A stretch of 64,000 nucleotides of DNA from a bacterium (GCA_021813145.1 JAKALS010000004.1:72594-136593); one strand, 5' to 3'; positions 28,946 to 63,848 are shown, counted from the first letter of the stretch. Made by a program: numbers and translations. The notes: generated by a model from the letters alone, not told the origin.

Positions 28946-28994
28946 AGCTTGCCGCGGTTCGTTAATCTTGCTATAGTATAGCAGAACTTTTTGT

Positions 28995-52781: not shown

Positions 52782-53408
52782 TTAGTAATCTAAGTTAAAT
52801 ACTAGAGCATATGCATCTCCAACATTGTAATTTAGTTCACTGTATGAAATCCTATCGTTTTGGGGAATATCCGCATACATAGGCCGTCCGTATAACCCTG
52901 GAAGCAAGACTCTCTCATCCATAGAATAACCTCTGATTTCCCCTGATTGCTTCATTGCTTCGAGTGTATTTTTAATACCGGCTTCAATATTTGGATTTTG
53001 CGTCTCGGTAAACACAATGTGATAACCTCTTTCAATTCCCCTTCTTACTCTTTCCTGAGACATTTTTCTATAAAGACCTGTTTTTTGCGCTTCACCTTCA
53101 ATTAAAACGCCTGCAAGGTAAACGCCCATTCCTTCTGGAAATGGAAAGTTAACCCCTGGAATTCCGTCAAAGGCATCTTTTGGAGATTTAAATTCTATTG
53201 AATCGAAACCAACAGCTCTTCCAGAGCCTTCTGCGACATAAATACTTAAAACATCTCCTTTTAAATGCCTTCGAACATCATCATCTGTGGGGACAAAACC
53301 GCTGGTATTTCGGCAGGCAAGAATTTGTTGAATTGTATCTTCGCCAATTCTCGGATCTTCACAACCAGCGACACTTTCTAAACGTCTAGCAATTATATTT
53401 TCTATCAT
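52782..53408 (-). CDS. Hypothetical protein (208 aa), possibly GNAT-like fold
   Basis: Strong SD AAAGGGAGGTGA; only a weak 'EGEAQKTGLYRKM' resemblance to GNAT motif A. Confidence 0.4.
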   Translation of the reverse strand: MIENIIARRLESVAGCEDPRIGEDTIQQILACRNTSGFVPTDDDVRRHLKGDVLSIYVAEGSGRAVGFDSIEFKSPKDAFDGIPGVNFPFPEGMGVYLAGVLIEGEAQKTGLYRKMSQERVRRGIERGYHIVFTETQNPNIEAGIKNTLEAMKQSGEIRGYSMDERVLLPGLYGRPMYADIPQNDRISYSELNYNVGDAYALVFNLDY

Positions 53409-53510
53409 TTAGTCTCACCTCCCTTTTTTTCAATCTCATAGTTAATTAATGGAGTTATACACCTAAGTCTTGTAAAATGCAAGAGTTATAGGCTTTAAGG
53501 AATATTTTAC

Positions 53511-53852
53511 TTAACCTTTTCTCTCACCACCTCTGTAGACATAGGTATCAATTTCATTACAAAGCCTTGGCCAAAGAACATCGATAATTCGTTCATGTAC
53601 CATGCCAACGTTTATATCAAGTTCTTGCATTGTCTGTTGCCCTTGTTCAGTAGTCATCTTATACAAAGGACTATCTCCCTTAATCCTGCTTCCACTAAAA
53701 GTCCATTCTATTTCAGTTCTTTGTTGATCACTTAGTCTAAATAAGTCAATCCCAGCTAATTCTAATGTAACCGGTTTATCTACGGGAATCTCTGTTGCAG
53801 CTAATATTGCTTTCACTTTCTCTGTGGGAGTTAACTCTGCAAAAGCTTTCAT
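53511..53852 (-). CDS. Hypothetical protein (113 aa)
   Basis: ORF only. Confidence 0.45.
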   Translation of the reverse strand: MKAFAELTPTEKVKAILAATEIPVDKPVTLELAGIDLFRLSDQQRTEIEWTFSGSRIKGDSPLYKMTTEQGQQTMQELDINVGMVHERIIDVLWPRLCNEIDTYVYRGGERKG

Positions 53853-53920
53853 TAGTCAATATTATACATCTGATATTCAAGAGTGGGGACTGCGCACATC
53901 TTGAGTTGTGCGACCCTAAA

Positions 53921-54415
53921 CTATTTCTTAAACTTATACCTTTTTGTAAATACCACCAAGAGGACGACAAAAATTAAGGAAGCACCTAGTGGTGGGAGAA
54001 TATATAATATTAAGCCCAAAATATTATAAGCAAATGAAATAATACCATTCATCAAATCAACGATCTTCGAAAAGATGCCATACATCCCAAGGATTAATAG
54101 CAACCATATAAATTTTTTAGTTTCTTTATACAACTTTCGATCCCTAAGTTTTCTTACAGCTAAGATATATAAACCTAGCCAAAGCTTAAGCCGATACAAT
54201 ACAGCTCCTACTGTTACATAAACCAATGCGCTGTAAAATGCACGATCTAATAAATTAGGGGCTGAAATTGGTTCTATCTTTTTCCACACAAAACTTTTTC
54301 CTAGAGTGAAAGACCACAATAATAATGCTAAAACAAAAAGAACAGTAAATAATGCAGACGCAATAATTCCCCTTTCACGTTTTATAAGAATTTTTTTATA
54401 CCATAACATAATCAC
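53921..54415 (-). CDS. Hypothetical integral membrane protein
   Basis: 164 aa, four or five TM helices. Confidence 0.5.
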   Translation of the reverse strand: MIMLWYKKILIKRERGIIASALFTVLFVLALLLWSFTLGKSFVWKKIEPISAPNLLDRAFYSALVYVTVGAVLYRLKLWLGLYILAVRKLRDRKLYKETKKFIWLLLILGMYGIFSKIVDLMNGIISFAYNILGLILYILPPLGASLIFVVLLVVFTKRYKFKK

Positions 54416-54441
54416 AAGAGGCAGGTTTAAAAATGTAAACT

Positions 54442-55182
54442 TTACTTTAAATATTCGTTTATATCCATAGCGGGGACAGTTCCTAATTTTTGAAGCTCAA
54501 TAATTAAATTCATAAAAAAATTTACCAAGCTATTTTCATCCTTTTGCAAAGCCAATTGATAAGGTTTTTTATTCTCATCCCAAGGATGATAACTTGAAAG
54601 TTTAAAATATGTTTTTCCTATCAATGAACAACCAAAATTTATTACTTTATTTTCATCGGAATTAACTACTATTCCTTGCATCTCCTTTGACAATGAGCCG
54701 TCAAAAGCTAAAATACCTGCAAGTACTCTAGCGTGTTTCTTAGGAGGATATACCCCTCCCGCATGAGGAATTTCAATACTCGTTCTTTTAAGTTTTCTTA
54801 CGGACTCTGCTTTATTTTGAGCGTAGGTTATATTCTCTTTACTTAAATCCTGTTTTACCTCAATAACTGCATACACACATTCAGCAGGAACATATGTAAC
54901 ACCATTTTGTCTCAATATAAATGGTGAATATTGCCTATCAAAGATGACAATGTCAATCTGGTCACTTATTTCTCCGTCGGAGTCAATAACGAAAGCTTTA
55001 TCCGCACAGTACCTTTTAGGAAGATAGGTTGAAAGCATTTCTATCCACTCTAATTCTGTGAAATCACCTTTCGCCGTAGAATGTCCAACAACAGATCTGT
55101 TAAAAGTTAGCTTAGCTTCCATTTGCGTTTGTAAACCTTTAAATATTTCTTTTGTATTGATTTTGTTTTTTGCTTTTACCAT
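54442..55182 (-). CDS. PD-(D/E)xK nuclease-fold protein (candidate effector)
   Basis: 'QIDIVIFD...ECVYAVIEVKQ' gives D...E-x-K spacing of restriction-endonuclease-like nucleases; start overlaps the nucleotidyltransferase stop by 7 nt. Confidence 0.5.
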   Translation of the reverse strand: MVKAKNKINTKEIFKGLQTQMEAKLTFNRSVVGHSTAKGDFTELEWIEMLSTYLPKRYCADKAFVIDSDGEISDQIDIVIFDRQYSPFILRQNGVTYVPAECVYAVIEVKQDLSKENITYAQNKAESVRKLKRTSIEIPHAGGVYPPKKHARVLAGILAFDGSLSKEMQGIVVNSDENKVINFGCSLIGKTYFKLSSYHPWDENKKPYQLALQKDENSLVNFFMNLIIELQKLGTVPAMDINEYLK

Positions 55183-55967
55183 ATAACAGGCGACAAATTT
55201 CCCGTAAGATAAATCGATGTTAAACTACTCGCCGCTTCATTTTTTATTTTAGCTTTTTCTACTTGCGTTAATTCTTCAGATACTTCGTTTCCTAGATTTG
55301 AGGGATCGAGAATAACTTTATCTTCAAAATCATTTGCAAGATAAGTCATTATATCAATAAAATTTTGTGAGGGGCTTCTCGAATAGGATTTTCCGCTTAA
55401 AGCTTCAATAACAGACAACTCTAAATAAAAGGATGGAAAATCTAAGCTCCATAATTTTCTCCAAATTTTCAAAGCTTTGATGTCGGAAATCCTACCTGAA
55501 TTTGCAACGTAACTTATATGTTCATCTATATTTGTTTTCGTCCATGTACCTGGTTTTCTTTTCCAAATAGAGTGATCAGCACTATTAAGAGACTGCTCAA
55601 CCCCTGCTACTAAATCAATTTTGTATCCTGAATGATTTATGCCGATGGAAACATTTTGTTCTCTTACGGAATATCCGGCACCATTAAATCTATTTTTTAA
55701 AGTTGTATATACCTGTTGTAATGTATTACAGGTACTAACAGACGGATTTAGCGAAATGAAATAATCTATGTCAGTTGTACCCGTTATACCAGTCCCTTTT
55801 GCTAAAGATCCCGATAGTTTTAATTCATACTCGTGTCCATTTGCCCAAGAAAGTATATGTATATTCAATTCATTTCCTATTTGAATAACATCATAAGTGA
55901 CATTTGGCGAATGACTTAAAACAACGCTGTTTATGTAATTATCGCTTGCAGATATGTCTAAATTCAT
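55176..55967 (-). CDS. Minimal Pol-beta-superfamily nucleotidyltransferase (SMODS/CD-NTase-like)
   Basis: 'LSGSLAKGTGITGTTDIDYFISL' (GS...DxD) plus third acidic 'YKIDLVAG'; helical C-terminus 'ISDIKALKIWRKLWSLDFPSFYLELSVIEAL'. Confidence 0.6.
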   Translation of the reverse strand: MNLDISASDNYINSVVLSHSPNVTYDVIQIGNELNIHILSWANGHEYELKLSGSLAKGTGITGTTDIDYFISLNPSVSTCNTLQQVYTTLKNRFNGAGYSVREQNVSIGINHSGYKIDLVAGVEQSLNSADHSIWKRKPGTWTKTNIDEHISYVANSGRISDIKALKIWRKLWSLDFPSFYLELSVIEALSGKSYSRSPSQNFIDIMTYLANDFEDKVILDPSNLGNEVSEELTQVEKAKIKNEAASSLTSIYLTGNLSPVIW

Positions 55968-56013
55968 AAATTCTATTGTAATTTTGATAACAACAAAGAC
56001 TTGATGTCTGGGA

Positions 56014-56205
56014 TTATCTTCCGTGACCAGCTTTATTGTGAGCTCGTCTGGAAATTACATATTCTTCTCCACTTTTTGGAGTAGGGGGAAATCTTTCTCC
56101 TCGATCAACGGTAACTTCATGTTCCGTTTTTCCACCGCGGGGACCGATTACTCTTGCTTCTCCTGAAAACGGAGATATTTCTCCTGGCTTAAATGTTTTA
56201 GGCAC
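56014..56205 (-). CDS. YjzC-like microprotein (63 aa from GTG; 74 aa if the upstream ATG is used)
   Basis: 'FKPGEISPFSGEARVIGPRGG...DRGERFPPTPKSGEEY' resembles the B. subtilis YjzC family; AAGGCGGG SD; overlaps the last lexA codons. Confidence 0.45.
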   Translation of the reverse strand: MPKTFKPGEISPFSGEARVIGPRGGKTEHEVTVDRGERFPPTPKSGEEYVISRRAHNKAGHGR

Positions 56206-56833
56206 TTTTATCACCCGCCTTAACAACATCAACAACAATTCCTTGTATTAAAAGGTCTTCGAAAACATAGATCGGTTTATTTGCGGGGTTTGACGAAATT
56301 GGCTCAAGGATAATATGTCCATCTCCATTTTTAAGCTTTTTAATTGTCGCATCGTCTCCGATTAAAGCTACAATTATTTGTCCAGGGTTTGCTGTATTTT
56401 GTTTCCTGATTAACACGTAGTCACCGTTATCGATTGTTCTGCCGTTAATATCCGCCTCGTTCATACTATCTCCAACCGCTTTTAAGAAGAAGTAATCATT
56501 TAGCGTAACTTTTATTTTTTTAGATTCGTAGGGAATGTAGGCTTCGATATTTTGAGTAGCAAGAATTGGAGTACCAGCCGCAACGTTTCCCACAAGGGGA
56601 ATGTTTATTTTTTCTCCAGAATAAGAAGGCTGTAAAGATCGGGATTGATTAGGAGTGTGGGAAAGATAATCCTTCTCCTTTAGAGCCTCCACGTGTCTTT
56701 GAACGGCGCTAATATAGTTATGTCCAGAAGCTTTTCTAATCTCTTCAAGAGTTGGAGGTTTACCAAGTTTAATAGTTAAATCTTTTATGATTGTTAAGAT
56801 ATTTCCCTGTTGGGCTGTTAGACTTTTTCTCAT
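56198..56833 (-). CDS. lexA: LexA repressor (wHTH + S24 autopeptidase)
   Basis: N-terminal LexA DNA-binding domain 'LTAQQGNILTIIKDL...PPTLEEIRKASG', cleavage site 'VAAG', Ser/Lys dyad 'GDSM' and 'TIKKL'. Confidence 0.85.
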   Translation of the reverse strand: MRKSLTAQQGNILTIIKDLTIKLGKPPTLEEIRKASGHNYISAVQRHVEALKEKDYLSHTPNQSRSLQPSYSGEKINIPLVGNVAAGTPILATQNIEAYIPYESKKIKVTLNDYFFLKAVGDSMNEADINGRTIDNGDYVLIRKQNTANPGQIIVALIGDDATIKKLKNGDGHIILEPISSNPANKPIYVFEDLLIQGIVVDVVKAGDKSA

Positions 56834-56836
56834 GGT

Positions 56837-56851
56837 TGGTATATAATACCA
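56837..56851. promoter_or_regulatory. Palindromic operator candidate TGGTAT-ATA-ATACCA overlapping divergent -10 elements in the 32-nt lexA / phage-region intergenic gap
   Basis: Perfect 6-bp arms around a 3-nt spacer; minus-strand TGGTATTAT lies 9 nt before the lexA ATG, plus-strand TATAAT 18 nt before ATG 56866. Confidence 0.4.
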
Positions 56852-56865
56852 CTAATAGTGTAAAT

Positions 56866-57582
56866 ATGCAAGCAGCAGATTCAAACAAAGGTATTAAGTC
56901 AAACCAGTATTGGGAAGATATGGCTTCTATCCTCTCTAATATGAAAAGGTTTAAAAAAGCTGTTATTGATGCTAGGATAAAATGGAAAATCCCAATAACA
57001 GGCTTGCCATGGGATAAAAGGGGTAATTGGTATTCTTCATTATTCGTAAATCCAGACAACACAGATAAAAACTATTATACTTCTGGACAAGATCAACTTA
57101 TTCCGCCAAGTGAAGTTATTCGTTCGACTTTAAAAGAAATATCCGAACAGTTTAACTTAGATAACAGATGGCATTCCTCGCTTCTTCTGCATATTGCTTC
57201 TGATGACGTTCCTTTAACTGCCCCTTTCGGATCACCCTCCCTTGAAATACGCATAAACGATTCAAGACTACCGGAGAAGGAGTGGATTATAAAAAGAATG
57301 TGGATTGAGATTTATCCCGACACCAGTTTAAAAGATATTCAAACACTCTGGAAACGTATCGAGACTTACCAATCAATGATGTCTACGCAATATCCTAAAA
57401 AGAGACGTCCTTTGGAAAACGTTAAAAAGTATATTAAAGTTAGGGAACTTGAAGATAACAATACTACACATAAAAAGATAGCAAATGATTATCCTGAACT
57501 TGGATTTGGCACTTACAAAGACGTCGCAGACTTTAAAAATCGGATTGAAGAAAGATTTTCCCCAAAAAGAGTTAGAAAATAA
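56866..57582 (+). CDS. Hypothetical protein (phage-region ORF, divergent from lexA)
   Basis: Start placed at ATG 56866 (MQAADSNK); the ORF-track start at 56791 lies inside lexA. Confidence 0.5.
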   Translation: MQAADSNKGIKSNQYWEDMASILSNMKRFKKAVIDARIKWKIPITGLPWDKRGNWYSSLFVNPDNTDKNYYTSGQDQLIPPSEVIRSTLKEISEQFNLDNRWHSSLLLHIASDDVPLTAPFGSPSLEIRINDSRLPEKEWIIKRMWIEIYPDTSLKDIQTLWKRIETYQSMMSTQYPKKRRPLENVKKYIKVRELEDNNTTHKKIANDYPELGFGTYKDVADFKNRIEERFSPKRVRK

Positions 57583-57645
57583 CGGTCTTTATTAAAGCAA
57601 TATAAATCGGTATTCATAGTGCTCTTGATGCCCTAGTATAAGGGT

Positions 57646-58962
57646 ATGCAAAACTTAAACATTGTCTATTCGGACATTTCCCAGCTTAAACCCGCTACAT
57701 ATAATCCGAGGGCTTGGAATGATGAGGCAATAAAGCAACTTACGGAAAGTATTAAACGTTTCGGATTAGTAGACCCTATTATCGTAAACGGTTCTAAAGA
57801 AAGATTTAATATTGTAATTGGTGGACATTTTAGACTTAAGGTTGCCAAGGATCTAGGATATGCTGAAATCCCCTGTGTCTATGTAAATATCCCTGACATT
57901 GAGAAAGAAAAGGAATTAAATCTTCGATTAAACCGTAATGTCGGTGAATGGGACTGGGATTTACTTTCCGAATTTGGAGAAAACTTGCTTTCAGACGTTG
58001 GCTTCTCTAGTGAAGAACTGGATGATATTTTTCAAATTGAAGAAACACCCGAGCAATTTGACCTTTGGAAAGAACTACAAAAATTAAATATCACTAAAAT
58101 TGCGACTCAAAAGGGGGACGTATATAAGCTAGGTGAAAATAGATTAATGTGTGGAGATAGCACCATAGAAAGTGATGTGCTGAAACTAATGAACGGTGAA
58201 CAAGCGGATATGTGCTTCACGGATCCTCCGTATCTTTTAGATTATCTCCACGGAAAGAAAAAGAAGGGTAAAGTAACCGAGGGTTTTGGAGCAAAAAGAG
58301 ATAGAAAATATCTTGAAACAGACGTACTTCCTCCTGATTTTACAGAAAAGTGGATGACAAACATCGCCAAAATCCAAAAGCTAGATTTCTCAATCATAAT
58401 TTTTGAAAATCCCAAGAACTTAAGGACAATTTGGTGTGAACTTGAGAAACATTGGAGATACAGAAATACAATTGTTTGGCATCTTCCAAATAGAATGCAA
58501 GGATTTGCCGCAAAATATAAGTTCTTCAATAAACATGACATTGCTCTAGTTGGGACAAGTGGCGATATTGGTTTAAACCTTGCTAGCGAAGACGAACTGT
58601 TTCAGAATGAATATGAAAATGCTCTATACGCAACTTCCGGAAAACCACACTGGGAAGGATATGAAAAAGGAAAGAAAATCCAACCAAGTGATTTTATTGA
58701 ATTTGTTGCTTCAGACGAAAAACACTCAGGACAAGGAATAATTTTCGGCACCAAACCTATCGAGGTTCTTATTCCTTATCTTAAGGTTTTAACAAAACGC
58801 GGAGATTTGGTAATTGAACCATTTGGTGGTAGCGGTAGTACGCTTATCGCCAGCGAAAAACTTAGAAGACGCTGCTTCATTATGGAGAAATCACCTGTCT
58901 ATGCGGAAGTAATCATAAAACGCTGGGAAAAGTTAACTGGACAAAAAGCAATAAAAATGTGA
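57646..58962 (+). CDS. ParB-like nuclease domain fused to N6-adenine/N4-cytosine DNA methyltransferase (phage-type orphan MTase)
   Basis: ParB N-terminus 'VDPIIVNGSKERFNIVIGGHFRLKVAK'; 'DPPY' (MCFTDPPY) and 'FGGSGST' MTase motifs. Confidence 0.8.
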   Translation: MQNLNIVYSDISQLKPATYNPRAWNDEAIKQLTESIKRFGLVDPIIVNGSKERFNIVIGGHFRLKVAKDLGYAEIPCVYVNIPDIEKEKELNLRLNRNVGEWDWDLLSEFGENLLSDVGFSSEELDDIFQIEETPEQFDLWKELQKLNITKIATQKGDVYKLGENRLMCGDSTIESDVLKLMNGEQADMCFTDPPYLLDYLHGKKKKGKVTEGFGAKRDRKYLETDVLPPDFTEKWMTNIAKIQKLDFSIIIFENPKNLRTIWCELEKHWRYRNTIVWHLPNRMQGFAAKYKFFNKHDIALVGTSGDIGLNLASEDELFQNEYENALYATSGKPHWEGYEKGKKIQPSDFIEFVASDEKHSGQGIIFGTKPIEVLIPYLKVLTKRGDLVIEPFGGSGSTLIASEKLRRRCFIMEKSPVYAEVIIKRWEKLTGQKAIKM

Positions 58963-59369
58963 AAACAGATAAAAACAAACAAATATTAATTGATCAACTA
59001 AGAAAAACGCCGATTATTCAAATCGCTTGCGAAAAATCAGGAATTGGACGAGCAACATATTATCGTTGGAAAAAAGACGATGCAAAATTTTGCGAAAACG
59101 CAGACGAAGCTTTGCAAGAAGGAAGCTTGTTGGTTAATGATATTGCGGAATCTCAGTTAATGAGTGCAATTAAGGATAAAAATATAACTGCAATAATCTT
59201 TTGGCTTAAACACCATCACCCAAATTACGCGACCAAAGTAGAAGTTACTGCAAGACTTAAGGCAGACAATGAAACTTTAAGCCCAGAGCAAGAAGCTTTA
59301 GTAACTAAGGCTTTACAAATTGCGGCTCTAATTCCAAAAGTAAAGGAGGAAGAAAAGCATGATACCTAA
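58959..59369 (+). CDS. Phage terminase small subunit-like HTH protein
   Basis: 136 aa, 'IACEKSGIGRATYYRWKKDD' HTH; immediately upstream of and overlapping the large terminase. Confidence 0.45.
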   Translation: MKTDKNKQILIDQLRKTPIIQIACEKSGIGRATYYRWKKDDAKFCENADEALQEGSLLVNDIAESQLMSAIKDKNITAIIFWLKHHHPNYATKVEVTARLKADNETLSPEQEALVTKALQIAALIPKVKEEEKHDT

Positions 59370-60867
59370 TTTAACTGAAAATGAATTACTCGAGATAAAA
59401 AATAAAAGAGTTGTCAGAAGAAACCTTGCAAAAAATAGTCATTTTTGGTTTTTCTCCATTTATCTTAGTCACTATATTAAATTCCCCTTTGCCGCTTTTC
59501 ATCATGAAATGTTTCGTATTACCGAAGATTTACTTCTTCGTTTTGTTGTGCTAGTTGCTTTTAGAGGCTCTGGCAAATCAACCATTATGACTTTGTCTTA
59601 CGTAATTTGGTCAATAGTCGGATTACAAAAGAGAAAATTTGTTCTCATCTTAAGCCAGACACAAAATCAAGCCAAAACACACATGGCAAATATCAAAAGA
59701 GAGTTGGAATCTAATGAATTGTTAAAAGCGGACATCGGGCCATTTGAAGAGATAAGCGATGAATGGGGTTCAAATTCAATTGTTCTTTCAAACTTTGGCG
59801 CAAGGATTACTATTGCCTCAACAGAACAAAGTATTAGAGGGTTAAGACATGGTGAACACAGACCGGATTTAGTTATTTGTGACGATGTAGAAGACTTAAA
59901 TAGCGTTAAAACTAGAGAAGGACGGGATAAAACATTTCAGTGGTTAACAGGAGAAGTTTTACCAATCGGAGACCAGAATACCAAGATTTTAATTATTGGT
60001 AATCTTTTACACGAAGACAGCCTTTTAATGAGACTCAGGCAGGCAATTGAAAATGAAAGAATTAATGGAAGATTTTACTCTTATCCTTTACTCGATGACG
60101 ACGATCAAATTTCTTGGCCCGGGAAATATAAAACATTAAAAGATATCGAAGATTTAAAAAAGTCTATTGCTTCAGATTCGGCTTTCTCAAGAGAATATCT
60201 ATTAAAAATTATTTCTGAGGATGATAGGCTGGTTAGGCCGGAGTGGGTTCAGTATTACGATGTTCTTCCTAACCAAGAAGGAAATAACTTTCGAGAAACA
60301 GCAACTGGAATTGATTTAGCAATCTCTGAAAAAGAGTCAGCGGACTGTACAGCAATGGTTTCAGCAAAAGTTTTTGGTTACGGAGACGATTTAAAAGTGT
60401 ACATACTTCCAGATCCTATAAACGCAAGAATGGATTTCCCCACAACCTTAGAATCGGCCATAACTCTATCAAAAGGGTTAGGAACTTATTATCCGACAAA
60501 ACTATACATAGAAGAAGTTGGTTATCAGTCCTCTTTAATACAAAGCTTAGTCAGTAAAAACATTCCGGCCGAGGGAGTAAAGGTAGCAGGTCAAGATAAA
60601 AGGGCAAGACTGGCATTGGTTACGCACATGATTCAACAAGGTAAGGTTTTATTTCCAAGAACCGGTGCTGAACAATTAATTGAACAGCTAACAGGTTTTG
60701 GAATTGAAAAACACGATGATTTAGCAGATGCCTTTGCAATACTTATGTTAAAAATTCTTGAAATGGAAAGCCAAGCGGAACCAAGAATCACTATTTTAGA
60801 AGTTGGAAGTATGTTTGGAGATTCTCCGTTTGATTACAAACCTATCACTATAGATACAATTTTCTAG
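59359..60867 (+). CDS. Phage terminase large subunit
   Basis: Walker A 'AFRGSGKST', Walker B 'LVICDDVED', C-terminal RNaseH-like nuclease acidic residues 'GIDLAIS...ADCTAMV'. Confidence 0.8.
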   Translation: MIPNLTENELLEIKNKRVVRRNLAKNSHFWFFSIYLSHYIKFPFAAFHHEMFRITEDLLLRFVVLVAFRGSGKSTIMTLSYVIWSIVGLQKRKFVLILSQTQNQAKTHMANIKRELESNELLKADIGPFEEISDEWGSNSIVLSNFGARITIASTEQSIRGLRHGEHRPDLVICDDVEDLNSVKTREGRDKTFQWLTGEVLPIGDQNTKILIIGNLLHEDSLLMRLRQAIENERINGRFYSYPLLDDDDQISWPGKYKTLKDIEDLKKSIASDSAFSREYLLKIISEDDRLVRPEWVQYYDVLPNQEGNNFRETATGIDLAISEKESADCTAMVSAKVFGYGDDLKVYILPDPINARMDFPTTLESAITLSKGLGTYYPTKLYIEEVGYQSSLIQSLVSKNIPAEGVKVAGQDKRARLALVTHMIQQGKVLFPRTGAEQLIEQLTGFGIEKHDDLADAFAILMLKILEMESQAEPRITILEVGSMFGDSPFDYKPITIDTIF

Positions 60868-61073
60868 AATAGGTCAGATAAGGAGACTTTAAGAGCTTTT
60901 GCTATTTTATCAATCGTTTGAACAGGTGGGTTACTAAGACCCCTTTCAATCCTACTAACAGTTGTGTAGTGTAGTCCGACTTTATCAGCCAAATCTTCTT
61001 GGGTCATCTTTTTATCTTTCCTTGCCCTTTTAATCCTTTTTCCTAATTTCTCATTGACTCTATATTTTCTCAT
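60864..61073 (-). CDS. XRE-family (Cro/CI-type) HTH transcriptional regulator
   Basis: 'MTQEDLADKVGLHYTTVSRIERG' canonical HTH_3. Confidence 0.8.
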   Translation of the reverse strand: MRKYRVNEKLGKRIKRARKDKKMTQEDLADKVGLHYTTVSRIERGLSNPPVQTIDKIAKALKVSLSDLF

Positions 61074-61184
61074 AGTAATAAAGTAATGAATCTAAGAATA
61101 AAAATGTATAGCGTCAGACGCTTTATTTAGCCTTGACTTTATGCTTAAATATAAGTAATATGTCATCAATAGGCACGAAAGGAG

Positions 61185-61697
61185 GTGATAAGAATGGAAG
61201 AAAAGAAAAAGAATTGGTTTATGCGACATAAAATTATCACTGGGATTTTAGTTTTTATTGTATTAGTTGGCGTATTGGGCGCAGCAGGTAGTAAGTCGGG
61301 AAACTCCGGAAGCAACAATCAATCTAGTTCAGCAAGTAATAGCGCTCCAACGCAAGCAGTCCAACAGCCACCTACGGTTGTTGTTGCAACAGCTCTTGTC
61401 GGAGATTATGATAAAAACAAACTCTCGGCACAAGATAAATATACGGGCAAAACCGTTCAGACAACTGCATACATAGATAATATCAGCGATGATATTACTG
61501 GAAATTACTATTTATCTTTGCATCCAACAAATGACCAGTATTACGCAGGAACAAGTATTTCCTGCTACTTTGCAGATAAATCTGCGAAATCTGAATTAAC
61601 GTCTTTGCAAAACGGTCAATCAGTGACGGTGCAAGGAACAATGGCAGATATGTCGTTAGGGATTGTAGTAATGAACGATTGTAAAGTCGTGAAATAG
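61185..61697 (+). CDS. Hypothetical membrane-anchored secreted protein
   Basis: N-terminal TM helix, Ser/Asn-rich linker; followed by a terminator. Confidence 0.5.
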   Translation: MIRMEEKKKNWFMRHKIITGILVFIVLVGVLGAAGSKSGNSGSNNQSSSASNSAPTQAVQQPPTVVVATALVGDYDKNKLSAQDKYTGKTVQTTAYIDNISDDITGNYYLSLHPTNDQYYAGTSISCYFADKSAKSELTSLQNGQSVTVQGTMADMSLGIVVMNDCKVVK

Positions 61698-61719
61698 GTA
61701 ATAGAATTATTCTATTAAG

Positions 61720-61745
61720 AAAACCTCTGGGCAAGGGGTTTTCTT
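61720..61745 (+). terminator. Intrinsic terminator after the 61185-61697 gene
   Basis: AAAACCTCT-GGGCA-AGGGGTTTT stem-loop followed by a TTC-interrupted T-run. Confidence 0.5.
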
Positions 61746-61800
61746 ATGTCTTCTACTGGACTTCCTCTCTTTTCTGCGGTACTGTTGACCTATAAATAGG

Positions 61801-63087
61801 ATGAGTATAAATAGTATCCAAAACAATGAGAATATCCTGTATTGTCTGTATGCTCGAAAATCTACAGAAGATGACGAAAGACAAGCTATGTCGATAGACT
61901 CCCAGATCAAAGAAATGACAGAAATGGCATTAAAAGAAGGAATAATTATTAAAGAAATTCGTCAGGAAAAACACTCTGCAAAGCTTTCAGGACAAAGACC
62001 AATATTTAACTCCCTTCTCCAAGACATACGAAACGGAGTATTTACTGGAATCCTTACTTGGGCACCAGACAGATTAAGTAGAAATGCCGGGGATTTAGGA
62101 ATGTTGGTAGATTTAATGGATCAAGAGAAATTACAAAAGATTAAAACGTATTCTCAAACATTTTCCAATAATCCTAATGAAAAATTCTTATTGATGATTT
62201 TATGTTCTCAGGCAAAACTTGAAAACGACCAGAAAGGAATAAATGTTAAAAGAGGCATTAGAGCAAAGTGCTCAATGGGATGGCGCCCGGGAATTGCGCC
62301 ACTCGGATACATGAATAGAGCTTTTGGAGGTGTAAAGGATATAATCGTTGATCCAAAGCGAGGACCAGTTGTAAAAGAAATGTTCGAGAGGGTTGCGTAT
62401 AGACAACAAAGTGGAAGAAGAATAAAAGAATGGATGGATAAAATTGGTTTTACCACCAGAAACGAAAAGAAAATACAAATTAGCTTAATCTATCTTATGC
62501 TTCGTAATCCATTTTATTACGGATATTTCGAATACTCAGGGGACTGGCATAAGGGAGCACATGAACCGTTAATTACAAAAGAAGTATTTGATGAGGCACA
62601 AAAAGAGCTAGATGAAAGATGCATTCCAAAAGTCAGAGGCAAAACAGAATTCCCATACAAAGGATTATTTAATTGTTATACTTGCGGAACGTCTGTCTGT
62701 GGGGAGGAAAAATATAGGAAAAAGAAAAATGGATCAACCAATTATCATGTTTATTATCACTGCACAAGATCTAGGAATCCTAACTGTAAGGAACCATATG
62801 TAACTGAAATAGATTTAATAAAGTTAATTAAGCAAAATATCCTTAACCTATCAGAGGAGACATTAAAAGAGAATTTAACATCTAATATTATTGATGAACT
62901 CTATAAATATCAGCCTATTGTTGAGGAAATAGAGTTTTACAAAAGAGATGACATTGAATACGACGGGAAGGTGGATCTGAAAGACATTATTGTTTACGCT
63001 TGCAGCAAATCCCCGATTAAATTTAGAAGAGAATTAATTCAGAGTCTTCCGATTCCTAAAAACCTACACAATCTTCTGCTTATTTAA
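61801..63087 (+). CDS. Large serine recombinase (resolvase/invertase catalytic domain + recombinase domain + zinc ribbon)
   Basis: 'LYCLYARKSTEDDERQAMSIDSQ' catalytic Ser block; 'CYTCGTSVCGEE...YHCTRSRNPNC' Zn-ribbon; 428 aa. Confidence 0.85.
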   Translation: MSINSIQNNENILYCLYARKSTEDDERQAMSIDSQIKEMTEMALKEGIIIKEIRQEKHSAKLSGQRPIFNSLLQDIRNGVFTGILTWAPDRLSRNAGDLGMLVDLMDQEKLQKIKTYSQTFSNNPNEKFLLMILCSQAKLENDQKGINVKRGIRAKCSMGWRPGIAPLGYMNRAFGGVKDIIVDPKRGPVVKEMFERVAYRQQSGRRIKEWMDKIGFTTRNEKKIQISLIYLMLRNPFYYGYFEYSGDWHKGAHEPLITKEVFDEAQKELDERCIPKVRGKTEFPYKGLFNCYTCGTSVCGEEKYRKKKNGSTNYHVYYHCTRSRNPNCKEPYVTEIDLIKLIKQNILNLSEETLKENLTSNIIDELYKYQPIVEEIEFYKRDDIEYDGKVDLKDIIVYACSKSPIKFRRELIQSLPIPKNLHNLLLI

Positions 63088-63398: not shown

Positions 63399-63848
63399 AT
63401 GAATTCCCTTCTCTCTTCCGGACTTTTTGACGAAAAGACCTTTTATCAAGTCTTTATTCAAGACTTAGAAAACAGTAAAGAGGAAGTGTTTATTGAAAGC
63501 CCGTTTATAACAACAGAACGGACAAAACCCCTTATTCCCCTATTCAATAAATTGCTTGAAAAAGGAGTGAGAATATACGTAATGACAAGAGATCCAAAAG
63601 AACACGAGGAAAAAATGGAATATCAATCAGAAGAAATAATATCCTGTTTTGAAAGACTTGGAATACAGGTTTTACTCTGTATCGGAAATCATCATAGAAA
63701 ACTGGCAATAATTGACAGAAATATTTTATGGGAAGGAAGTCTTAATATTCTTTCCCAAAACAATAGCCGGGAGATAATGAGAAGAATAGAAGGTGAAGAG
63801 TTGTCTTTGGAAATGTTTAATTTCCTTAAGCTTTACAAATTTATTTAA
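63399..63848 (+). CDS. Single-HKD phospholipase-D-family nuclease (Nuc/BfiI-like)
   Basis: 'HHRKLAIIDRNILWEGSLN' = HxK(x4)D(x6)GS motif; 149 aa. Confidence 0.7.
   Translation: MNSLLSSGLFDEKTFYQVFIQDLENSKEEVFIESPFITTERTKPLIPLFNKLLEKGVRIYVMTRDPKEHEEKMEYQSEEIISCFERLGIQVLLCIGNHHRKLAIIDRNILWEGSLNILSQNNSREIMRRIEGEELSLEMFNFLKLYKFI

Follow-up and report, generated by a model that had tools for sequence, protein, structure and literature searches.

A LexA-family repressor gene at the head of a putative minimal CBASS operon in a variable defence slot of Patescibacteria

Gene content of the lexA-headed locus

We examined a 64,000-nucleotide (nt) stretch of bacterial DNA (GCA_021813145.1 JAKALS010000004.1:72594-136593; hereafter the window), in which four tightly packed minus-strand open reading frames (ORFs) encode, in this order, a LexA-family repressor, a 63-amino-acid (aa) YjzC-like microprotein, a 263-aa nucleotidyltransferase and a 246-aa nuclease (Table 1). 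The names of homologues point to Patescibacteria (Microgenomates/Levybacteria-like), and an identical sequence is present on a 122-kb ENA contig (L001; other contigs and loci are likewise cited by L numbers). A first-pass annotation had described four packed genes with overlapping stop and start codons, and this packing was confirmed: the GTG start of the 63-aa ORF overlaps the lexA stop by 8 nt, a 46-nt gap separates the 63-aa ORF from the 263-aa ORF, and the 246-aa ORF overlaps the 263-aa ORF by 7 nt. No minus-strand terminator-like site was found in positions 53400-57700. As this packing together with the lack of a terminator favours co-transcription over mere adjacency, lexA and the genes for the small protein, the cyclase and NucC (possibly also the gene for a 164-aa membrane protein beyond nucC) probably form one transcript.

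The lexA product scored above the equivalog cutoff of the NCBIfam model TIGR00498 (143.2 vs 110.95 bits) and contains the Pfam domains LexA_DNA_bind (PF01726) and Peptidase_S24 (PF00717). In a full-length alignment to E. coli LexA, the VAAG, GDSM and IKK (TIKKL) motifs were in register, at positions that we take to be A84-G85, S119 and K156 of the E. coli protein; both the Ala-Gly cleavage site and the Ser/Lys dyad are kept, and the product is predicted to be an autocleavable LexA-family repressor. LexA represses its own promoter and cleaves itself on activated RecA (RecA*). The window holds no second LexA homologue, and the homologues elsewhere, named LexA by their sources, form a smooth identity series from 87 to 56%. 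These properties (i.e., a full-length LexA above the equivalog cutoff, single in 64 kb, within a smooth series) also fit the possibility that lexA is the one housekeeping SOS gene of its host, located next to a chromosomal integration hotspot, in which case its proximity to the other genes would reflect the landing of an island and not regulation. We regard this as improbable, as the overlapping stop and start codons and the missing terminator point to co-transcription; further evidence on both sides is given below.

The 263-aa protein matched the PADLOC cyclase model PDLC00803 (1.9e-75, residues 8-251) and the Pfam SMODS model (28.3 bits; gathering score 26.5). The NCBIfam models CBASS_cyclase_a and CBASS_cyclase_b gave 47-50 bits against a cutoff of 200, i.e., the protein is not an equivalog of either. 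The Pol-beta triad reported by the first-pass annotation (GS, DxD and a third Asp) is real, with G53, S54, D66, D68 and D118 invariant in 27 cyclase homologues. When the predicted structure (AlphaFold; predicted local distance difference test, pLDDT, 93.9) was searched with Foldseek, the top neighbour was CdnC of E. coli MS115-1 (6u7b/6p80; 8e-13, template-modelling (TM) score 0.76), followed by P. aeruginosa CdnD (6p82) and CdnB, and a sequence profile of the cyclase led to the same neighbours. Two other assignments of this protein were rejected: ANT/KNTase, as Pfam returned only SMODS at E<=0.01 and the fold neighbours are cGAS/DncV-like nucleotidyltransferases (CD-NTases), and AbiEii/DUF1814 (AbiE, type IV toxin-antitoxin), as no Pfam match was found at the same threshold. 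The earlier view of a signalling, and not an aminoglycoside, nucleotidyltransferase thus holds. Overall, sequence profiles and the predicted fold identify the 263-aa protein as a minimal CD-NTase of an anti-phage signalling system based on cyclic oligonucleotides (CBASS), of the CdnC/CdnD-like type; by analogy with this fold, and given its NucC partner, we infer that its product would most likely be cyclic tri-AMP (cA3).

For the 246-aa protein, two PADLOC NucC models gave strong matches ('Endonuclease (NucC)', 1.8e-88, and another at 7.7e-60), and it aligned over residues 11-245 with the solved NucC of E. coli MS115-1 (6p7o; 5e-50); the Pfam match was DUF6602. The restriction-endonuclease-fold core noted earlier ('DIVIFD' and 'VIEVK') was borne out, in that the catalytic D...ExK is intact and its segments 'QIDIV' and 'IEVK' align to D73 and E104/K106 of E. 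coli NucC. The protein is accordingly predicted to be NucC, a cyclic-oligonucleotide-activated effector nuclease; once activated by cA3, NucC acts as a DNase and the infected cell is killed. As the motifs themselves (generic Pol-beta nucleotidyltransferase motifs and a PD-(D/E)xK core) are common to many families, the two proteins might instead be a toxin-antitoxin or AbiE-like pair, or an antibiotic nucleotidyltransferase beside an unrelated nuclease. This is very improbable, given the lack of AbiEii, DUF1814, ANT or KNTase Pfam matches, the CD-NTases among the structural neighbours, and best matches to CBASS cyclases (1e-75) and NucC (1e-88); the toxin-antitoxin/AbiE-like alternative was rejected on these two identifications.

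Neither HORMA nor AAA models of Pfam and PADLOC matched the genes flanking the cyclase gene and nucC, and no recurrent HORMA or TRIP13 gene was found beside 12 homologous cyclase-NucC pairs from other phyla, which are located among restriction-modification genes. The absence of HORMA and TRIP13 both here and beside these 12 pairs argues for a minimal type I-like CBASS with NucC as effector, and an assignment to type III CBASS was rejected for lack of the same two genes. In total, paired genes for the cyclase and NucC were found in at least 14 loci, which come from several phyla. Homologous pairs were also seen on contigs assigned to Bathyarchaeia (L016, L017 and L023), which suggests that the minimal CBASS may have moved between domains. 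The window NucC is 70% identical to one on the Berkelbacteria contig L014.

The closest relatives of the window cyclase are paired with a different protein, i.e., a 165-185-aa protein whose N-terminus forms a transmembrane helix and whose C-terminal domain is conserved, and not with NucC. In many Patescibacteria loci, such proteins are encoded directly upstream of cyclases (L006 7433-7987, L011 7491-7997, L040 8862-9371, L041 8637-9155), and eight metagenomic ORFs (plus three that match TM172 alone) are homologous to those of L040 and L041.

The 63-aa protein matched phrog_3202 (5.5e-12) and fell just under the gathering score of Pfam YjzC (22.6 vs 25 bits). It is conserved in 29 homologues, whose N-termini (MxKTFKPG) fit the GTG start; its model (pLDDT 85) consists of three beta-strands and found no PDB neighbour better than E=0.5. 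A YjzC-like protein occupies the slot after lexA in the window, L057 and L051. The first-pass annotation had treated it as a component of the module; it is not CBASS-specific, as the slot after lexA more often holds DUF2188. In L052 (6602-9284), a YjzC-like microprotein gene, followed by one for a metallo-beta-lactamase-fold protein, lies divergent from genes for an HTH_3 and a Peptidase_M78 protein (a CapH/CapP- or ImmR/ImmA-like pair), an arrangement that places the microprotein also behind another class of damage-responsive repressor. The 164-aa membrane protein showed a weak match to a PADLOC 2TM effector (E 0.0017), and the GC content of its gene is close to that of the cyclase gene and nucC (0.315 vs 0.332 each; neighbouring genes, 0.38-0.39); it may be part of the cargo or a second effector, or an unrelated gene.

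The promoter region between lexA and the divergent operon

The 32-nt spacer between the lexA ATG (56833) and the divergent ATG (56866) contains the palindrome TGGTATATAATACCA (56837-56851), at a distance of 3 nt from the former and 14 nt from the latter. The predicted lexA promoter is TTGCAT-17-TGgTATTAT, and as the ATG is located about 3 nt from the predicted start, the lexA mRNA is apparently leaderless; the divergent promoter is TAGACT-17-TATAAT. The palindrome represents the second and third of three half-sites on the lexA strand, i.e., TACAC (-29), TGGTA (-18) and TACCA (-8) relative to the ATG, and this operator-like region overlaps the -10 elements of both promoters.

We aligned 63 lexA upstream regions, and counted half-sites over 51 distinct 50-nt upstream regions in comparison to shuffled sequences. 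A TTACGCTA block lies between -35 and -10 in the alignment, often as TTACGCTA-N1-2-TAGCGTAA with the right arm entering the -10 element, and a third element, TACGC, stands just before the ATG. At least one TAC[AG]C was present in 45 of the 51 promoters (about 4 in shuffles), and 34 had two or more half-sites (0.55 in shuffles). The TAC[AG]C/G[CT]GTA half-sites occupy fixed positions (-31..-26, -18/-16 and -9..-5), and those of the window (-29, -18, -8) fit this footprint. The 15-bp palindrome is identical in L032 and L035, despite differing flanks. A palindrome in front of lexA that overlaps both -10 elements, as described in the first-pass annotation, is thus present, and it is part of a positionally conserved operator-like footprint. 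Loci of the L005/L011 type, which carry a second LexA-like family (see below), show the same leaderless geometry, with a palindromic -10 element (AGTATACT) six nt from the ATG.

Rarity of the palindrome was rejected as evidence, as the window contains 23 perfect 6-N3-6 palindromes vs 21 +/- 4 in shuffles; with up to 2 mismatches, TGGTATATAATACCA had 3 matches in the window (2.1 expected). Since 6-N3-6 palindromes are not rare, the weight of TGGTATATAATACCA comes from its position and conservation.

Another perfect palindrome, TGCTATAGTATAGCA, was observed at 28969-28983, 12 nt ahead of the recJ ATG. It occupies the 49-bp spacer that separates recJ (plus strand) from the divergent gene for a CCA-adding enzyme (minus strand), and has the same geometry as the palindrome at lexA. 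One reading of it is a LexA site; the other is a pair of overlapping extended -10 elements, i.e., a symmetric bidirectional promoter. A related palindrome upstream of recJ is what would be expected if this lexA were the SOS repressor of the host; weighing against that reading, the recJ site can equally be read as two extended -10 elements, and half-site dyads elsewhere in the window, which contains neither a recA nor a uvrA promoter, occur at chance frequency (8 vs about 10 expected), i.e., no further operators were detected.

LexA neighbourhoods and the terminase/integrase module

The closest LexA homologues (71-86% identity) are always divergent from a module encoding an unknown protein, a ParB-methylase, TerS and TerL, often together with a serine integrase. 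What follows lexA differs among loci. In L032, lexA is followed by genes for DUF2188, a cyclase and NucC, in L035-L037 by an unrelated set that includes a trypsin-like protease, and in L038-L039 by genes for DUF3892 and DUF5677 proteins. Among loci with more distant LexA proteins (57-63%), L040 encodes DUF2188, a 1TM protein, a 352-aa DncV-like cyclase and the products of two further genes, and both L041 and L049 encode a 1TM protein and a SMODS-AGS_C cyclase; the cargo of these three loci represents putative CBASS of other types, and their 1TM proteins belong to the kind that PADLOC scores as a CBASS 1TM effector. SMODS-type cyclases are thus encoded in L032, L040 and L041 in addition to the window. 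A cyclase and NucC together are found beside a LexA-family gene co-directionally in L032 and L057 and divergently in L050.

A comparison of the window with L032 showed 86% identity for LexA, 70% for the cyclase and 40% for NucC, with DUF2188 in place of the YjzC-like protein; the cargo is a mosaic.

To this set we added a metagenome scan with a LexA alignment, which yielded 80 loci, with ORFs chained downstream of lexA; the cargo set consists of the 41 loci in which one or more cargo ORFs reach 120 aa. A CBASS cyclase was located directly downstream of lexA in 16 of these 41 loci, in several architectures. Eight cargo ORFs were PADLOC '1TM effectors' (PDLC00664), and other cargo included ThsB_TIR (6), AGS_C (5), the Cap15 receptor (3), bacterial HORMA (2) and SduA_C (2), as well as ThsA_Macro, SLATT_4, AbiEii and KAP NTPase domains. 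The first small ORF after lexA encoded DUF2188 in 19/38 loci and DUF3892 in 2/38. Among the 38 loci with enough upstream sequence, 17 had a divergent terminase/methylase module within 7 kb.

A second LexA-like family (25-35% identity) is divergent from cyclase operons in L005-L008, L011, L013 and L050; the first six of these loci carry the operons of the closest relatives of the window cyclase, and L050 has the order YjzC-like/cyclase/NucC. The involvement of two LexA families and at least four CBASS architectures argues for a functional association of LexA with CBASS, and the finding that two unrelated families both associate with cyclase operons also speaks against a chance landing of an island beside a housekeeping lexA. 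In L006 (5809-7371, minus strand), a single 520-aa ORF has a LexA-like N-terminal part joined to a DNA methyltransferase, the two being encoded by separate adjacent genes in L011; the fusion may be genuine or may stem from an assembly error or a frameshift.

Overall, the cargo is hypervariable, whereas lexA and the divergent module are conserved. The proposed operon of lexA, nucleotidyltransferase and nuclease therefore stands in so far as its components are LexA-adjacent in other genomes (L032, L057, L050); it does not stand as a dedicated operon, since lexA heads a hypervariable defence slot.

To the left of the window operon are ordinary genes (menC-like, peptidases, aminoacyl-tRNA synthetase), and to its right, in divergent orientation, are genes for the 238-aa protein, ParB-methyltransferase, TerS, TerL, an XRE-type helix-turn-helix (HTH) protein, an OB-fold protein and a large serine recombinase (Table 1). 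A homologue of the 238-aa protein, 88% identical, occupies the same position in L038. This module (i.e., a ~240-aa protein, the ParB-N/methyltransferase fusion, TerS, TerL, the XRE HTH protein and the large serine recombinase) recurs in Patescibacteria contigs (window 56866-63087, L032, L035-L040, L042-L046), is often flanked by type IIG/ISP restriction-modification and SNF2-PLD genes, and is also carried by IMG/VR contigs. No capsid, portal or tail genes were found beside it in the window or in L043-L046; in IMG/VR contigs, a search for structural phage genes next to the terminase module gave only restriction-modification and helicase genes. Neither att sites nor empty sites were recognised, nor was a helper phage. 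The module may represent an element of the phage-satellite kind. Just past the serine recombinase (63399-63848) is a gene for a 149-aa PLD-like (PLDc_2) protein, possibly an island nuclease.

Table 1. Predicted features of the lexA-headed operon and of the divergent module, in window coordinates
Feature	Position	Strand	Remarks
Multi-pass membrane protein	53921-54415	-	164 aa; starts 26 nt past nucC
NucC effector endonuclease	54442-55182	-	246 aa
CD-NTase (CBASS cyclase), CdnC/CdnD-like type	55176-55967	-	263 aa
YjzC-like microprotein ORF	56014-56205	-	63 aa; fills the slot after lexA
lexA	56198-56833	-	211 aa; first gene of the operon
Candidate LexA operator over compact bidirectional promoter	56837-56862	.	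26 bp; three 5-bp half-sites
238-aa protein	56866-57582	+	Opens the divergent operon; unmatched in Pfam, PHROG and NCBIfam
ParB-N / DNA methyltransferase fusion	57646-58962	+	Pfam ParB_N, N6_N4_Mtase; phrog_498 8e-83
Small terminase-like protein (TerS)	58959-59369	+	phrog_309 1.2e-9
Large terminase (TerL)	59359-60867	+	phrog_38 2.1e-79
XRE-type HTH protein	60864-61073	-	69 aa; called on the identical contig L001, with Pfam HTH_3
Large serine recombinase (integrase)	61801-63087	+	phrog_95 7.6e-62; Resolvase and Recombinase domains in L001

This setting raises the possibility that LexA is the immunity repressor of the terminase/integrase element and that its true target is the divergent methylase/TerS/TerL operon. 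CBASS would then be a passenger (a 'moron') that rides on the repressor transcript and is expressed in the quiescent element, as rexAB is behind lambda cI, with induction by damage incidental or absent. The divergent position of the module relative to lexA (window, L032, L035-L040, L042 and 17/38 metagenomic loci), the hypervariable cargo against a conserved lexA and module, the lower GC content of the cargo relative to its flanks and the module-bearing contigs in IMG/VR are all in its favour. On the other hand, as one operator spans both promoters, release of LexA should de-repress both sides; LexA followed by CBASS is found with no terminase module nearby in L041, L049 and L080-L083; and neither capsid, portal or tail genes nor defined att sites accompany the module. 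We thus consider the passenger explanation unlikely, though a serious candidate, and it overlaps with control of CBASS by LexA rather than excluding it.

Interpretation and comparison with known systems

Taking together the gene identities, their packing, the operator-like footprint and the repeated finding of defence cargo behind LexA, we read the locus as a LexA-controlled minimal two-gene type I-like CBASS, carried as cargo in the slot downstream of lexA, with a probability of roughly 0.6. From the same features we infer LexA binding and induction by damage, i.e., SOS gating. Bound to the three-half-site operator, LexA would lie over the -10 elements of both its leaderless promoter and the divergent methylase/terminase promoter, and would hold transcription from each to a low basal level. 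Self-cleavage of LexA, stimulated by RecA in response to DNA damage, prophage induction or phage infection, would then raise the levels of the cyclase and NucC. The CdnC/CdnD-like CD-NTase would make a cyclic oligonucleotide, most likely cyclic tri-AMP, which would switch on NucC, so that cellular DNA is destroyed (abortive infection).

Several observations weigh against this reading. In most other phyla, this cyclase-NucC pair is found with no lexA at all, and LexA is therefore not required for its function. Relatives of CdnC and CdnD normally require a HORMA partner, and none was found at this locus. The operator overlaps extended -10 elements, and its conservation may in part be promoter conservation; in addition, L038, L042 and L051 show no co-variation between the palindrome's outer arms. 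A weak promoter-like sequence just upstream of the cyclase gene (CTCACA-18-GATAAT, 9/12 matches) could give LexA-independent cyclase expression. Finally, the CapH/CapP regulator of a comparable system was dispensable for protection against the tested lytic lambda cI- phage (bioRxiv 10.1101/2022.04.27.489752).

If CBASS is nonetheless controlled by LexA, the locus connects cyclic-oligonucleotide immunity directly with the classical SOS sensor (RecA* and its action on LexA), and bears on how suicide systems, CBASS included, are held silent until they are armed. The LexA-headed arrangement recurs with at least four cyclase/effector architectures and two unrelated LexA families. Candidate-phyla-radiation bacteria are reported to have few defence systems, and these loci would represent a modular, probably mobile, defence hotspot carried by such bacteria. 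A broader scheme, which we put forward as tentative and on balance doubtful, is that a LexA-family repressor is the conserved head and switch of a defence hotspot on a capsid-less candidate satellite of Patescibacteria. A single signal sensed through RecA* would both trigger mobilisation of the element and arm its cargo, which would be CBASS in ~40% of copies and otherwise Thoeris-, Shedu- or AbiE-like, with DUF2188 and YjzC-like proteins as common accessories of damage-gated operons.

The kinds of CBASS components found here are already known, as is damage-responsive control of CBASS by CapW and CapH/CapP. To our knowledge, no regulators other than those of the WYL type (CapW) and CapH/CapP have yet been linked to CBASS. 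We found no description of a LexA-headed CBASS in the searchable literature, the overlap with Sanchez-Osuna et al. 2017 and Burroughs & Aravind 2020 being unchecked; a LexA/S24 repressor as head gene of CBASS and other defence cargo was thus not found in the literature searched.

The closest comparison is the type III CBASS of E. coli MS115-1 (CdnC-HORMA-TRIP13-NucC), with which the window shares the NucC family (5e-50, catalytic residues kept), CdnC as the closest solved cyclase (TM score 0.76) and a proteolytically inactivated, damage-linked repressor (predicted for the window) at the head of the locus. Unlike that system, the window lacks HORMA and TRIP13, and its cyclase is shorter (263 vs about 320 aa) and only about 20% identical. 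The regulators also differ: CapH/CapP of MS115-1 is a divergent HTH plus M78 metallopeptidase pair, whereas the window has one LexA/S24 protein, co-directional and probably co-transcribed with its cargo. No CapH/CapP-type HTH plus M78/ImmA metallopeptidase genes were found in the window by Pfam, and LexA holds the head position. CapH/CapP de-represses the E. coli CdnC-NucC CBASS after DNA damage (bioRxiv 10.1101/2022.04.27.489752), and the locus would follow the same logic with a single self-cleaving protein.

In gene content, the locus resembles two-gene type I CBASS, which consist of a cyclase and a single effector with no ancillary genes, and the same cyclase-NucC pair likewise stands alone in restriction-modification-rich neighbourhoods of many phyla. 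It differs from type I CBASS in its effector, as the characterisation of NucC comes mainly from type III CBASS and type III CRISPR.

Like LexA here, CapW/BrxR (WYL) and CapH/CapP are head-of-operon transcription factors for varied defence systems and are thought to be damage-responsive. CapH/CapP-like regulators also head DUF2188 and DUF3892 operons (bioRxiv 10.1101/2022.04.27.489752), i.e., the same small proteins come next as after LexA. In contrast to these regulators, the window protein combines a winged-helix LexA domain with an S24 serine peptidase, and its sensing would go through RecA* and not through direct binding of single-stranded DNA.

Lambda cI-rexAB and the defence hotspots of P2/P4-type elements offer a further parallel, in that abortive-infection cargo comes behind the repressor gene of an integrated element, and interchangeable systems occupy one fixed slot. 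Unlike these, the window element has a repressor with a LexA-type DNA-binding domain and encodes TerS, TerL, a ParB-methylase and a serine integrase with no structural genes seen, and its hosts are Patescibacteria. The protein itself matches canonical SOS LexA in domain architecture, cleavage site and catalytic dyad, and in the operator-like dyad over its own promoter; it differs in its TACRC half-site, in having three sites one helical turn apart, in that no classical SOS genes are known to be among its targets, and in an apparently leaderless mRNA.

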